Translations under genes and position numbers: made by a program
Notes under the pieces: model-generated
Database searches by the model: none
Seen by the model: only the letters and a program-made list of their open reading frames with translations
What the model was told of the DNA's origin: nothing
Shown here: piece after piece, positions 497-4,169 of the stretch
Position numbering within the stretch: position 1 is the first letter of the stretch
How the letters are laid out: each line of letters opens with the position of its first letter
Virus record (IMG/VR): IMGVR_UViG_2541047428_000007
From: a virus
Taxonomy: Duplodnaviria; Heunggongvirae; Uroviricota; Caudoviricetes
Length of the DNA: 4,169 nt
Direction: 5' to 3' (one strand)

Positions 497-1213
497 ATGG
501 AAACCGTATCTGACGCACTGAAAGCACTGAAAAGAGCCTCTTCACATGTGGTGGCAGCTCGCCTTGGAATTAGTCGTGAAGAGGCTGTCAACGAACTGTG
601 GAAACTGAAACGCCGTGGAGAAGCGGATAACAAGGGGGCGATATGGTGGCTGACTCAGGCTGGTGAAAGTGAACCGGTGTCACCGGTACCGAAAGTGACG
701 GCGCAAATGCTGACAGAGGCGATTGAACAACATGGCCCACAAACGGCGGATGAACTGGCATTGATGTTCGGAATTACCTCCCGCCGGGCGAATTCATCGC
801 TGGCAATGGCAATCAGCAAAGGGTGTCTGATTCGCGTGAATCAGGATGGTAAATTTCGTTACTGCATACCGGGCGTTGATTTACCGGCAGAGCCGAAAGC
901 AGCATCCGTAGCTGAAACGGAGGGTAAAGCCCTTCCTCAGCCAGCTGGTGTTGCGTTACCAGTCCAGGAAACGGCTGCACAGGAAGAAATTAAAACAGAA
1001 GCGGTGGAGGACATTGTGAAGTTGCAGCAATCGTTCACTGAAGCGAAAGCAGATGACCTGATTCTACCATCGCTGCATGTGGCTAACCGCGAGCTGCGCC
1101 GGGCGAAAAGTAATGTTCAGAAGTGGGAGCGAGTCTGTGCTGCGCTACGGGAACTGAACAAACACAGGGATATTCTCCGGGATATTACCGCCACCAGAGA
1201 GCAGCAGCGGTGA
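497..1213 (+). CDS. Prophage protein with N-terminal winged-helix-like region and C-terminal coiled-coil (DUF1627-like)
   Basis: ATG at 497 is preceded by GGAGG (484-488) with an 8-nt spacer; the ORF-track start at 479 is TTG with no RBS. Stop TGA 1211-1213. Two HTH-like segments ([18 protein letters not shown]; [26 protein letters not shown]) and a charged, heptad-like C-terminus. The DUF1627 assignment is from memory. Confidence 0.75.
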
Positions 1214-1527
1214 GTGGCTGGAAGAAGTGGCGCTGGGCTGAAATCCTGATACTCCGGCAGTGTGCGGGAACGATGAGAGTCGAAAGCATCGGTTATCTGA
1301 TTGGCCGTAGTGAGTCAGCCGTCAGGACGAAAGCGCGGGAACTGGGTATCAGCATGATGTTACGGGGTGATTATCACCAGTCAGCCAAATGTTCACAGCG
1401 TGATATTGAGCTGGCGTGGCAACTGCATCAGCGTGGTGTACCCCGACGGGAAATTGCCGAAAAGTTTGGGATGAAGTTGGGCGCAGTGAATAACTACGTT
1501 TATTTCGACAGGAGGGTTCAGGAGTGA
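1210..1527 (+). CDS. Small DNA-binding protein with two helix-turn-helix-like motifs
   Basis: GTG at 1210 overlaps the upstream stop (GTGA), suggesting translational coupling; an alternative start is ATG 1273. The track start at 1123 is a GTG deep inside the previous gene and is rejected. HTH-like segments [23 protein letters not shown] and [19 protein letters not shown]. Stop TGA 1525-1527. Confidence 0.6.
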
Positions 1528-1826
1528 GGGTGAGGGTTTATATCGCCGGTCCGATGACGGGATATGAAAATTTTAACCGCGAGGCATTTCACAAAACGGA
1601 AGAGGTGCTGAAACGGGAAGGGCATACCGTTTTAAACCCGGCAGTACTTCCGGACGGGCTGACTCAGCCACACTACATGGATATTTGCATGGCAATGCTC
1701 CGTTGCGTGGATGCGGTTTACATGCTGAAAGGCTGGCAGCAGTCGGCAGGTGCAGGGGCTGAGCTGGCACTGGAGGAGAAACCGGGCCATGCGGTGATTT
1801 TTCAGGAGGTGGGCAGTGAATATTGA
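1524..1826 (+). CDS. DUF4406-like protein (nucleoside 2-deoxyribosyltransferase-like fold)
   Basis: GTG 1524 overlaps the upstream stop (GTGA) and is preceded by GGAGG 1511-1515; alternative start GTG 1530. N-terminal motif VYIAGPMTG followed by ...GHTVLNPA..., which I recall as typical of about 100-aa DUF4406/NDT-like proteins common in phages. Stop TGA 1824-1826. Confidence 0.75.
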   Translation: MRVRVYIAGPMTGYENFNREAFHKTEEVLKREGHTVLNPAVLPDGLTQPHYMDICMAMLRCVDAVYMLKGWQQSAGAGAELALEEKPGHAVIFQEVGSEY

Positions 1827-2133
1827 CCCGGCGATAACGATTGATATGGCCCTGAACGCCGGCCTGGCACTTCTTGGTTATTTCTACATTATGTTCTGCA
1901 GCGGACGATGGCTGTCACTGTTGTTCATGAAAAAATGGAATAAACGCCGTAAGCAGGAGCAACGCCAGAAGGCAATGGATGCATTTTTCGAAGCCTTCGG
2001 AATTGACGGCATGGAACCAGGGGATCCAGCTCGCGCAATCAGCAGAGGGGGTGTAGTAATCCTTGTATATCGGAGTGAAGAGAAAAATGACGATCACAAA
2101 ACAACGTGTAGAAGAAATCATATCCCGCATTGA
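1816..2133 (+). CDS. Hypothetical small membrane protein (one N-terminal TM helix followed by a K/R-rich segment)
   Basis: GTG 1816 with GGAGG 1805-1809 (6-nt spacer) overlaps the end of the DUF4406 gene. Hydrophobic stretch ALNAGLALLGYFYIMFCSGRWLSLLF followed by KKWNKRRKQEQRQK (positive-inside). The 3' end overlaps the next gene by 47 nt if that gene starts at 2087. Weaker than its neighbours. Confidence 0.45.
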   Translation: MNIDPAITIDMALNAGLALLGYFYIMFCSGRWLSLLFMKKWNKRRKQEQRQKAMDAFFEAFGIDGMEPGDPARAISRGGVVILVYRSEEKNDDHKTTCRRNHIPH

Positions 2134-2404
2134 AATGTATGGACATGGTGCAGGGTATATCGCAGACGAGGTTAATGATCTGGCTATACTGGCGCTGAAT
2201 TTATCAAATATCGCGAACCTGAAGCGATACGAGCTTGATATGGGAGGTTGCGACTCGTGCGGTCAGGATTGTGGCGCTGATATGACTGAAGATCCTGATG
2301 GTGATTATGTCCTGTTTGATGACGTGGTTAAGTTGTTTGAATTTGATACAACCACTCAAAAGTTAGAAATCCCGGCAAAGGAGGCAGCCAGTGGGCAAGA
2401 TTGA
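2087..2404 (+). CDS. Hypothetical phage protein, acidic C-terminal half
   Basis: ATG 2087 with GGAG/GAAGAGA upstream; the ORF-track start at 2063 is TTG. Continuous frame to TGA 2402-2404. Acidic Cys-containing segment DMGGCDSCGQDCGADMTEDPDGDY. No family recognised. Confidence 0.6.
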   Translation: MTITKQRVEEIISRIEMYGHGAGYIADEVNDLAILALNLSNIANLKRYELDMGGCDSCGQDCGADMTEDPDGDYVLFDDVVKLFEFDTTTQKLEIPAKEAASGQD

Positions 2405-2828
2405 CTATCAGGCACTGCGTGAGGCAGCACAAAACTATCAATCGACGCTGGCGTGGTATCAGGCTACCCCGGACAGCCCAAATGCTGAACGGGATTGTGA
2501 TGCGGCTCTTGCTGCGTTTAAGCGTCACATCCGTCATCGGGAAGCGGATATTATCGCTGATTTGCTGGATGGACTGGAAGAAGCAAAATCACAACTCAAC
2601 GAGCAGCGTGAGTATTACGAAGGCGTTATCTCTGATGGGAGCAAGCGTATTGCTGAACTGGAAGCGCGGGAAGTTCAATTACCGACTCGCTACGACCTTC
2701 GATATGGACACCCGATAAATGCAGATGAGCGACATGTCATGATACCTAAAGAAAATGGCAGTTGGCTTTACCTGATTGACCTAGAACACGCATTACGCGT
2801 CGCTGGCATTCGCATCAAAGGAGAGTGA
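2391..2828 (+). CDS. Hypothetical phage protein (145 aa), predicted helical / coiled-coil middle region
   Basis: GTG 2391 preceded by AAGGAGG (2377-2383, 7-nt spacer); overlaps the upstream gene by 14 nt. Stop TGA 2826-2828. No family recognised with confidence. Confidence 0.7.
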   Translation: MGKIDYQALREAAQNYQSTLAWYQATPDSPNAERDCDAALAAFKRHIRHREADIIADLLDGLEEAKSQLNEQREYYEGVISDGSKRIAELEAREVQLPTRYDLRYGHPINADERHVMIPKENGSWLYLIDLEHALRVAGIRIKGE

Positions 2829-2829
2829 G

Positions 2830-3021
2830 ATGAACGGACAAATATCAATTGTTCGACCAGGAGCATGTGACGATCGCGAAATACGAATGATTATTCGTCT
2901 GGCGATGGGGAAAACAATAACTGCTCTCATTACTCCAGAAAATCTCGCATTAGCATTAACAGGAAAGTCAGACATGCCAGTAGAGCTAAAGCTGCGAAAT
3001 GTTGAGATTAAGGTGAAATAG
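2830..3021 (+). CDS. Hypothetical small protein (63 aa)
   Basis: ATG 2830 lies 1 nt after the upstream stop, with AAAGGAGAG at 2816-2824. Stop TAG 3019-3021. Fits the compact operon. Confidence 0.55.
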   Translation: MNGQISIVRPGACDDREIRMIIRLAMGKTITALITPENLALALTGKSDMPVELKLRNVEIKVK

Positions 3022-3023
3022 CT

Positions 3024-3581
3024 ATGACCACTATTACCAAAGATCGACTGCTGACAATCCAGCATTGGCGCGAAACATACGGACCGGGTAGCAACGTTGT
3101 GCTTCCAGCAGAAGAAGCGGAAGAGCTGGCACGGATTGCGCTGGCATCACTGGCAGCAGTATCGGATGAACGAGCAGCCTATGAATTATTTATGGAGAAG
3201 CGTTTCGGAGAATCTGTAGATCGCCGCAGAGCAAAAAATGGCGATAGAGATTACATGGCATGGGATATGGCGCTTGGCTGGATTATCTGGTGTCACCGCG
3301 CCGCCATGCTTCAGGCTGGAAACTTTCGGGAAAATAAGGGTTCGTCAACCAATAATTTTCGGATAATCTCGGAAACGTCAACCAACTCTCCGGCAATCCC
3401 TGATGAGGTGTTGTCCGCAATCCTGAAGGTCGCCAGGCTTCGTGCAGATTTCGATGCTTCTGAAGTGGACAGGCGAGGTATCGGTAGTTGTCTGGATGAG
3501 GCCGAGCAAGAACTTATCGTTACCATTAACGAATACGCCAGTCAGATCGCAGTAGAAGCGACACAGGGGGAGAACCAATGA
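3024..3581 (+). CDS. Hypothetical phage protein (185 aa)
   Basis: ATG 3024 lies 2 nt after the upstream stop, with AAGGTGA 3010-3016 as RBS. Stop TGA 3579-3581. Contains a short low-complexity S/T/N stretch (GSSTNNFRIISETSTNSP) encoded by an imperfect DNA repeat (CGTCAACCAA at 3343-3352 and 3376-3385). Confidence 0.7.
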   Translation: MTTITKDRLLTIQHWRETYGPGSNVVLPAEEAEELARIALASLAAVSDERAAYELFMEKRFGESVDRRRAKNGDRDYMAWDMALGWIIWCHRAAMLQAGNFRENKGSSTNNFRIISETSTNSPAIPDEVLSAILKVARLRADFDASEVDRRGIGSCLDEAEQELIVTINEYASQIAVEATQGENQ

Positions 3582-3805: not shown

Positions 3806-3821
3806 TATGGGAATTCCCATA
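3806..3821. promoter_or_regulatory. 16-bp perfect palindrome TATGGGAATTCCCATA, candidate operator for a dimeric DNA-binding protein
   Basis: Read directly from the sequence: positions 3806-3821 are perfectly self-complementary. It sits between the stop of the 34-aa ORF and the putative -35 of the hok-locus promoter. Confidence 0.4.
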
Positions 3822-3863: not shown

Positions 3864-3881
3864 TGCTGCGGGTGCTTGAGG

Positions 3882-3917
3882 CTGTCTGCCTCGGGCATGC
3901 CACCGTAAGGCAGACAG
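3882..3917 (+). promoter_or_regulatory. Stable stem-loop in the hok mRNA leader (10-bp stem, 16-nt loop)
   Basis: CTGTCTGCCT (3882-3891) pairs perfectly with AGGCAGACAG (3908-3917). The loop contains the 8-bp palindrome GGCATGCC (3894-3901). No downstream U-tract, so not a typical intrinsic terminator; more consistent with the folded leaders known for hok-family mRNAs. Confidence 0.4.
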
Positions 3918-3929
3918 AGAAAAGCCCCA

Positions 3930-3995
3930 GTTAACATTACGCGTCCTGCAAGACGCTTAACATTAATCTGAGGCCCAATCTATGCTTCACAAACG
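3930..3995 (-). ncRNA. sok: Putative Sok-like antisense RNA covering the mok translation-initiation region (approximate bounds)
   Basis: By analogy with characterised hok/sok loci, Sok is transcribed antisense across the mok SD/start. A weak candidate promoter on the minus strand is -35 TTGCCT (complement of 4020-4025) and -10 TAACCT (complement of 3997-4002), 17-nt spacer, which would put the TSS near 3990. The -10 is poor and the ends are not determinable from sequence. Confidence 0.2.
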
Positions 3996-4169
3996 TAGGT
4001 TAGCCTCTTACGCGCCGAAAGGCAAGGAGAAGCAGGTTATGAAGCAGCAAAAGGCGATGTTAATCGCCCTGATCGTCATCTGTTTAACCGTCATAGTGAC
4101 GGCACTGGTAACGAGGAAAGACCTCTGCGAGGTACGAATCCGAACCGGCCAGACGGAGGTCGCTGTCTT
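3982..4169 (+). CDS. mok: Mok-like reading frame: in-frame 19-codon N-terminal extension of hok (3' end off-window)
   Basis: ATG 3982 preceded by GAGG (3970-3973) and in frame with hok ATG 4039 (57 nt apart). Extension MLHKRRLASYAPKGKEKQV. As I recall it, E. coli mokC is likewise an in-frame N-terminal extension of hokC. Confidence 0.45.
   Translation, partial: MLHKRRLASYAPKGKEKQVMKQQKAMLIALIVICLTVIVTALVTRKDLCEVRIRTGQTEVAV
4039..4169 (+). CDS. hok: Hok/Gef-family type I toxin (small membrane peptide), 3' end truncated by the window
   Basis: ATG 4039 preceded by AAGGAGA (4024-4030, 8-nt spacer). Translation MKQQKAMLIALIVICLTVIVTALVTRKDLCEVRIRTGQTEVAV matches the Hok/Gef signature (TM helix, then ...RKDLCEV.IRTGQTEVAV) and is essentially identical over the visible part to my recollection of E. 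coli HokD (RelF) and Gef. A full Hok is about 50 aa; 43 codons are in the window. Confidence 0.88.
   Translation, partial: MKQQKAMLIALIVICLTVIVTALVTRKDLCEVRIRTGQTEVAV

Follow-up and report, generated by a model that had tools for sequence, protein, structure and literature searches.

The window analysed here is a stretch of 4,169 nucleotides from a tailed-phage record (IMG/VR IMGVR_UViG_2541047428_000007), and it belongs to a lambda-like prophage of E. coli O157:H7. Between a DUF1627 gene and a DUF4406 gene lies a small gene for a protein of 105 amino acids (aa), whose ends overlap both neighbors. The genes and junctions discussed below are these:

497 to 1213, + strand: the upstream gene, DUF1627 (YdaW-like; Pfam PF07789, E = 6.8e-82)
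1210 to 1213, + strand: upstream GTGA junction, where the GTG start of the 105-aa gene (1210–1212) overlaps the TGA stop of the DUF1627 gene (1211–1213)
1210 to 1527, + strand: coding sequence of the 105-aa double helix-turn-helix (HTH) protein (318 bases; the RefSeq coordinates are the same)
1510 to 1515, + strand: AGGAGG, the Shine-Dalgarno (SD) sequence of the DUF4406 gene, inside the 3′-end of the 105-aa coding sequence
1524 to 1527, + strand: downstream GTGA junction, where the TGA of the 105-aa gene (1525–1527) overlaps the GTG of the DUF4406 gene (1524–1526)
1524 to 1826, + strand: the downstream gene, DUF4406 (nucleoside 2-deoxyribosyltransferase-like; Pfam PF14359, E = 2e-33)

The product of the central gene is identical in sequence to WP_000017339.1, which RefSeq names "hypothetical protein," and to ECs1512 of the Sakai prophage Sp6. 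It is a basic protein of 12.3 kDa (pI 10.0). A 551-base query around the gene (window positions 1100–1650) matches many O157 chromosomes at 100% identity. In O157 genomes the gene is present in two intact copies and one decayed copy, to which Sakai adds a Mu-like relative. In strain TR01, the prophage adjoins potC, and its genes run in the order cI/cro-like genes, a YdaT-like gene, a DnaT-like initiator, a P-like loader, DUF1627 and the 105-aa gene, followed by DUF4406, DUF4752, several unknowns, hokD, DUF968, and RusA. When the 105-aa gene is compared pairwise with alleles at 70–92% identity, dN/dS is 0.11–0.45. The ORF at 1210–1527 is a genuine conserved gene, far beyond a chance ORF. A megablast of the phage collection found no match, and a search of the literature for WP_000017339 and ECs1512 found no mention of them. 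In a review of the regulators encoded by O157 islands, 16 are characterized; none is assigned to the prophage present here or matches the 105-aa gene.

Three candidate starts were compared: GTG 1123, GTG 1210, and ATG 1273. The gene starts at GTG 1210, and the earlier note was right to place it there rather than at ATG 1273. Codons 2–21, which separate these two starts, carry most of the evidence. They hold W7, which is nearly invariant in a 32-member alignment reaching down to 27% identity, and the first helix of the first HTH unit (unit A; residues 9–18 in the AlphaFold2 model). Every stand-alone member of the family begins a few residues ahead of W7, and in the close family residues 14–20 and 22 are nearly invariant across genera. 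The dN/dS of codons 2–21 is 0.12–0.26, like that of the remainder of the gene, which indicates purifying selection; against phage D6 it is 0.15 at a dS of 1.7. In relatives from other genera, the long form is preceded by a strong SD (with ATG or GTG) or by an ATGA overlap. The upstream candidate, GTG 1123, was rejected: in allele L047, a stop in frame comes between the positions that correspond to 1123 and 1210, and GTG 1123 has no SD.

That only an 84-aa product is made from ATG 1273, with 1210–1272 left untranslated, is extremely unlikely. The SD of GTG 1210 is indeed very weak, and gene callers have picked ATG starts in many alleles, giving rise to the 93-aa and 84-aa clusters. Against this stand the purifying selection on codons 2–21 and the location within them of W7 and helix 1. 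Because helix 1 comprises residues 9–18, a product from Met22 would be without that helix of unit A. On the conservation and dN/dS of these codons, ATG 1273 was rejected as the sole start. Its SD is also poor (duplex of -4.3 kcal/mol), at an unusable spacing of 2 nt. RefSeq holds 105-, 93-, and 84-aa versions of one gene, and by their sequences the two shorter forms are differences in start calling. An allele annotated as encoding 84 aa (L100) retains the GTGA start, with a GAGAGGA SD ahead of it, and the 93-aa form is confined to alleles that have an ATG at codon 13.

The GTGA stop/start overlaps at the two ends of the gene, described in the earlier note, are read directly in the sequence, and the RefSeq coordinates agree. 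They had been taken to mean translational coupling to both neighbors and stoichiometric co-expression. The first of these claims survives at the upstream junction, where an SD is missing and the overlap is conserved, but downstream, where the next gene has its own AGGAGG, no coupling is needed. The second we give up, since the 105-aa gene without an SD is probably translated by reinitiation and the DUF4406 gene has a strong SD of its own. The best anti-SD duplex at GTG 1210 is -2.9 kcal/mol, and no usable SD lies upstream. Among the eight other starts used in the window, seven have SD duplexes of -6.1 to -11.8 kcal/mol; the remaining one, ATG 3024, is also weak (-4.8 kcal/mol). Termination-reinitiation classically takes this form, a GTG start that lacks an SD and overlaps the stop of the gene before it. 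The upstream junction carries the sequence marks of a coupled pair: overlap of stop and start, no independent SD, and conservation in relatives. Of 101 related loci, 80 keep it, even though the DUF1627 alleles diverge to 61% identity; locus counts here and below are not numbers of independent events because closely related E. coli prophages dominate the sample. In allele L053, the junction reads GTTA, so that stop and start are destroyed together. As GTG 1210 is almost without an SD and overlaps the DUF1627 stop, translation of the 105-aa gene probably reinitiates after the DUF1627 gene.

At the downstream junction, AGGAGG lies within a 9-nt duplex, ACAGGAGGG at 1508–1516, with a free energy of -10.8 kcal/mol and a spacing of 7 nt. 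With so strong an SD of its own, the DUF4406 gene can start independently. As far as the sequence tells, coupling is plausible at the upstream junction and unnecessary at the downstream one, and neither overlap implies equal amounts of protein. No promoter- or terminator-like sites above chance were found within the gene block. In three of four RNA-seq runs, a single assembled contig covers 541–3327, at low depth and with DNA carry-over possible, which fits, weakly, one transcript.

The protein is predicted with good confidence to consist of two three-helix HTH units joined by a linker. The AlphaFold2 model, built with a 45-sequence alignment, has a mean pLDDT of 86.4 and a pTM of 0.57. Its helices span residues 9–18, 24–31, and 35–45 in the first unit, and 63–74, 79–86, and 90–99 in the second. 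An earlier AlphaFold2 model from a shallower alignment has the same outline. The parts of the protein map to the window as follows:

1234 to 1344, + strand: HTH unit A (residues 9–45), Myb/SANT- or GcrA-N-terminal-like, as judged from AlphaFold2 and conservation
1345 to 1395, + strand: linker (residues 46–62, 17 residues), pLDDT about 79
1396 to 1506, + strand: HTH unit B (residues 63–99), homeodomain-like or sigma-70 region-4-like

Since the pTM is only 0.57, the relative orientation of the domains is undefined. A pTM of this size would be expected of two units held together flexibly. By hhalign, units A and B align in register (probability 87.7%, E = 3.4e-6), so the protein is an internal duplication and its units are homologous. 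Unit A has basic residues (R33, R39, K41, and R43) within and close to its predicted recognition helix (35–45), and the C-terminal tail is basic as well (R101, R102). The linker carries the most conserved motif of the family, L51-x-G53-D54-x-H56-Q57-S58-x-K60 (also written L-R-G-D-x-H-Q-S-x-K), where G53 is nearly invariant, distant relatives included. In the fold search, the N-terminal HTH of IstA superposes on unit B to 0.7 Å over 38 residues. The earlier proposal of two HTH segments in about 105 aa is borne out by the pLDDT of the model, by the internal repeat, and by Pfam HTH matches below threshold; structure prediction returns the HTH fold, in two three-helix units.

No Pfam or NCBIfam model reaches its cut-off for the 105-aa protein, and NCBIfam gave nothing useful. 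The best Pfam match is Sigma70_r4_2 (PF08281), at 21.2 bits vs. a threshold of 25.7 and over residues 76–98 only; HTH_23 and HTH_7 score 16.2 and 16.0 bits (thresholds 24.6 and 23.8). The sub-threshold HTH matches fall at residues 61–98, that is, in the second unit, and unit A has no Pfam match at E ≤ 1. Some relatives carry a precomputed Sigma70_r4_2 hit. The HTH had been expected to prove either sigma region-4-like or Fis/NinH-like. The former keeps its below-threshold match, while the latter falls away: NinH and Fis gave no Pfam hit at E ≤ 1, and the 50 best PDB fold matches of each model include neither.

Homologues are numerous. A word-indexed search found 158 at E ≤ 1e-3, in Escherichia, Salmonella, Citrobacter, Pantoea, Enterobacter, and Pluralibacter, most of them bearing the RefSeq name "DNA-binding protein"; a second such search, with alignment A3, added almost nothing new. 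An exhaustive profile search turned up hundreds of remoter relatives; repeat proteins (P0128 is a TPR protein) inflate its total of 1218 representatives at E ≤ 1e-3. By our own count, roughly two-thirds of its top 150 match across both units. The BFVD viral structure library holds 24 matching proteins at E < 1e-3, nearly all of them uncharacterized phage proteins of ~100 residues, encoded by temperate as well as virulent phages. Among the weaker matches there (E 1e-3 to 4e-3) are some proteins with an endonuclease annotation. The 105-aa gene is an ordinary member of a widespread, uncharacterized family of small, putatively DNA-binding phage HTH proteins.

DUF1627 immediately precedes the gene in 80 of 96 loci, practically all from E. 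coli, and DUF4406 immediately follows it in 80 of 101. A fixed module of DUF1627, HTH, and DUF4406 was considered and rejected, as it holds only in the lambdoid prophages of E. coli. Elsewhere the neighbors are others:

Citrobacter, Franconibacter, and Superficieibacter: homologue directly after a P-like loader
Pluralibacter: homologue after a DnaC-like ATPase
P1-like phage D6: homologue (orf90, 71% identical) after a DUF4406 fusion protein (DUF4406 is upstream instead)
Vibrio phage: homologue after a small wHTH protein at a divergent promoter region
Salmonella prophages: homologue in the leftward early operon, between the recE/271-aa gene pair and xis-int
P2-like Vibrio prophage: homologue directly before a gpA homologue
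Mu-like prophages: early-region homologue of three units, with gam on one side and the annotated regulatory genes on the other (ECs4956 in Sp18)

As the neighbors change outside E. coli, the gene behaves like an autonomous early accessory module.

The best explanation, and one that we hold to be reasonably probable, is that the gene encodes a bipartite double-HTH DNA binder, an early accessory regulator translated by reinitiation. The gene would be transcribed together with the delayed-early genes that follow the replication genes. Ribosomes would reach GTG 1210 by termination-reinitiation from the DUF1627 stop, and the 105-aa protein would be made only if DUF1627 is, and in smaller amounts. 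A single molecule would set its two recognition helices (about 35–45 and 90–99) into neighboring major grooves and span the gap with the conserved linker. The site read in this way would be composite and asymmetric instead of palindromic, and the protein would serve as an early accessory regulator (of transcription or of DNA) for genes of the phage or the host. We infer DNA binding, bipartite recognition by a monomer, and the regulatory role, as well as reinitiation. A bipartite reader of an asymmetric site is not expected to target a perfect palindrome. The one at 3806–3821, once proposed as its target, has its 14-bp core within 5 kb in 9 of 69 related loci, and we no longer connect it with the protein. 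Control of late genes had been suggested too; nothing was seen to indicate it.

The protein might act differently. The gene repeatedly adjoins DNA-metabolism genes in unrelated phage layouts, which would suit an accessory factor that binds DNA in replication or recombination (at an origin or initiator site, say, or on recombination intermediates) and does not regulate transcription. Its immediate upstream neighbor is a P-like loader in L086, L091, and L092 and a DnaC-like ATPase in L090, and its immediate downstream neighbor in the Vibrio prophage is the P2 gpA homologue. In Salmonella prophages it directly follows the 271-aa gene (no Pfam hit) that comes after recE, and in Citrobacter (L089) it follows a 365-aa gene that, judged by eye, looks RecT-like. 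However, early operons accumulate accessory genes at such places anyway. In E. coli, the DUF1627 gene stands between P and the 105-aa gene, and phage D6, Serratia phage Parlo, and the Mu-like prophage offer no replication neighbor. We consider such a role unlikely. Quite unlikely, too, is a conflict factor serving superinfection exclusion or counter-defense by binding foreign DNA or a defense regulator. Lambda Ren is an exclusion or conflict factor in the ren slot. The 105-aa gene stands one gene past that slot, which DUF1627 fills, and homologues occupy the slot itself in L086, L091, and L092. The DUF1627 neighbor weakly matches a Ren-like PHROG (phrog_142, E = 7.7e-5), and the spread of the family over many temperate and virulent phages, in highly variable contexts, also favors a part in conflict. 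Yet PADLOC models run against the gene and its seven downstream neighbors matched 0 families at E ≤ 0.01, and the protein has no known anti-defense homologue and no toxin-like or enzymatic feature.

HTH folds are also capable of contacts between proteins, and the units may be used in this way, as in a sigma region-4 or GcrA-like adaptor of RNA polymerase, and not for sequence-specific DNA binding. This we judge highly unlikely. The best Pfam match is Sigma70_r4_2, and relatives with repeated A units match GcrA, which also binds sigma-70, but the Pfam matches are below threshold and cover the generic HTH core only. What we take to be the sigma-binding region of GcrA is absent from the 105-aa protein. 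The conserved basic residues near the recognition helix of unit A, the basic tail (R101/R102), and the pI of 10 fit contact with DNA instead. A long shot, in our estimate, is that the protein represents a large family of phage "paired-like" DNA readers that Pfam leaves unclassified. Such readers would consist of a Myb/GcrA-like HTH, a linker with an invariant G-[DEK]-x-H, and a homeodomain-like HTH, and would exist in three-unit forms and long arrays of the same unit as well; expressed early, they might reprogram chromosomal genes of the EHEC host and read the minor groove specifically with their conserved linker. The prophage factors Cro, Pch, and RgdR reprogram host chromosomal genes in enterohaemorrhagic E. 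coli. RgdR (ECs1581), an O157 prophage regulator considered for the RGD of the linker, proved unrelated to the 105-aa protein (BLASTP E = 13); its RGD motif is at residues 20–22, in surroundings of unrelated sequence.

Whichever role applies, and we continue to prefer the early double-HTH regulator, the value of the analysis is mostly in annotation. The start codon is fixed among the 105-, 93-, and 84-aa versions in RefSeq, a protein labeled "hypothetical" is given a fold and a family definition, and a tempting link to the palindrome beside hok is removed. If the family binds specific DNA, it would add one more prophage regulator modulating gene expression in O157:H7 and define a common phage DNA-binding module outside Pfam. 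The result would not surprise a phage biologist; what is new is the correction of the start codon and the clearer description of the domains.

How does the protein compare with named systems? In the PDB, the whole model has no significant fold match. The best one by Foldseek (E = 0.016, probability 0.97, TM 0.31) is 2LVS, which also heads the profile search with hmmsearch (E = 4.5e-4, including the linker and the second HTH). The title of 2LVS is "CRISPR repeat binding protein," and we take it to be a protein of the Cbp2 type. It likewise has 105 aa in an HTH-linker-HTH layout, but it is archaeal, it shares 18–21% identity at the low TM just given, and a CRISPR context is absent at the 105-aa gene. 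The paired-like domains of Tc3 (1U78) and Pax (1K78/1PDN/6PAX) rank 2, 6, 8, and 44 in the fold search, with E values of 0.1–0.8 and identities of 14–20%. The paired domains of Tc3 transposase, Pax5, Pax6, and Prd have two three-helix HTH subdomains and a linker, as does the 105-aa protein, which, unlike them, has no transposase or other catalytic partner. Domains of this paired-like type contact two adjacent major grooves, and their linker lies in the minor groove. The likeness to Cbp2, Tc3, and Pax is best taken as an analogy of architecture and mechanism only and not as membership.

For unit A, the likeness is to the N-terminal part of GcrA and to Myb/SANT, with which it has in common the pattern W-x2-E-x3-L ... 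I-A-x2-L-G-R-[ST]-x2-A-V. Relatives with repeated A units match PF07750 (GcrA), PF00249, and PF13921 (Myb/SANT) at 1e-8 to 1e-5, whereas the 105-aa protein itself has no GcrA or Myb hit at E ≤ 1 and lacks the C-terminal half of GcrA. The comparison with lambda NinH and the other small DNA binders of the nin region, drawn in the earlier note, holds for position (a ren/nin-like slot in the accessory region past the replication genes), for size, and for presumed DNA binding. It does not extend to kinship, as neither sequence nor fold is similar to that of NinH or Fis, and the position itself differs in the Salmonella members, which sit in the leftward early operon. Residues 5–104 match PHROG 323 (annotation "transcriptional regulator, D5-like") with E = 1.8e-24 (87.9 bits), covering positions 147–248 alone of the 319 in the profile. 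In the RefSeq "DNA-binding protein" clusters, members at 60–91% identity share both length and motifs with the 105-aa protein.

The HTH gene appears in RefSeq and GenBank in versions of 105, 104, 93 and 84 aa (protein clusters P0080, P0019 and P0010). Since the GTGA start is intact in both alleles read, one annotated in the 84-aa form (locus L100) and the other in the 93-aa form (locus L047), the short versions look like start-calling choices favoring ATG. The loci considered here other than the window's own gene include the following:

L100:2941-3255, allele of the HTH gene, annotated 84-aa form
NC_002695.2 1767502-1767690 and NZ_CP033605.1 1689441-1689629, decayed third copy, 58 % identity
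L107:2864-3415, three-unit form, Sakai ECs4956 in the Mu-like prophage Sp18
L002:4788-5339, three-unit form in a Mu-like prophage
L109:2854-3306, 150-aa homologue in the P2-like Vibrio prophage 10N.286.54.E4_PE001

In one allele the GTGA of window 1210-1213 is replaced by GTTA (L053:1141). This single change abolishes the DUF1627 stop codon and the HTH gene's start codon together, and the DUF1627 protein, its stop lost, is longer by 13 codons. The allele offers a naturally occurring test of the coupling model, in which termination at the GTGA is followed by reinitiation into the HTH gene.

Three of four RNA-seq assemblies have a single contig that covers exactly window 541-3327; in the fourth, it is interrupted near 1920 and 2010. 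The contig ends at 541 and 3327 probably reflect repeats common to sister prophages, not transcript ends. Further along, window 3870-4044 gives a full-length match to the Rfam sok antitoxin (114.9 bits) within the hok/mok/sok cassette, where the RNA-seq contigs are 100 to 10,000 times as deep as over the accessory operon.

The O157 genomes hold a second intact copy of the HTH gene in a different prophage (79 % identity), and the decayed third copy is broken internally by one TGA and one TAG. Beyond these, the family extends to a 183-aa member with three units (A-A-linker-B), which Mu-like prophages encode in their early region, between gam and the annotated regulatory genes. The long proteins P0150 (409 aa), P0158 (301 aa), P0129 (791 aa) and P0143 (623 aa) are Myb/GcrA-like repeat arrays, in which the same HTH unit, W-x2-E...LGR[ST]-x2-V, recurs in tandem about five to nine times. 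The raw match counts for the family are inflated, because the exhaustive profile search, by summing many weak stretches, also recovered TPR repeat proteins (P0128); PINS/LGN TPR proteins were likewise among the matches in PDB searches.

The homologues also occur in other prophage settings. Directly downstream of the 150-aa Vibrio homologue lies a replication gene of the P2 gpA type. In Salmonella enterica prophages (L095-L098) the homologue belongs to a leftward early operon, in the order recE (Exonuc_VIII), a 271-aa gene, the homologue and then xis-int, whereas the E. coli copies occupy the opposite prophage arm.
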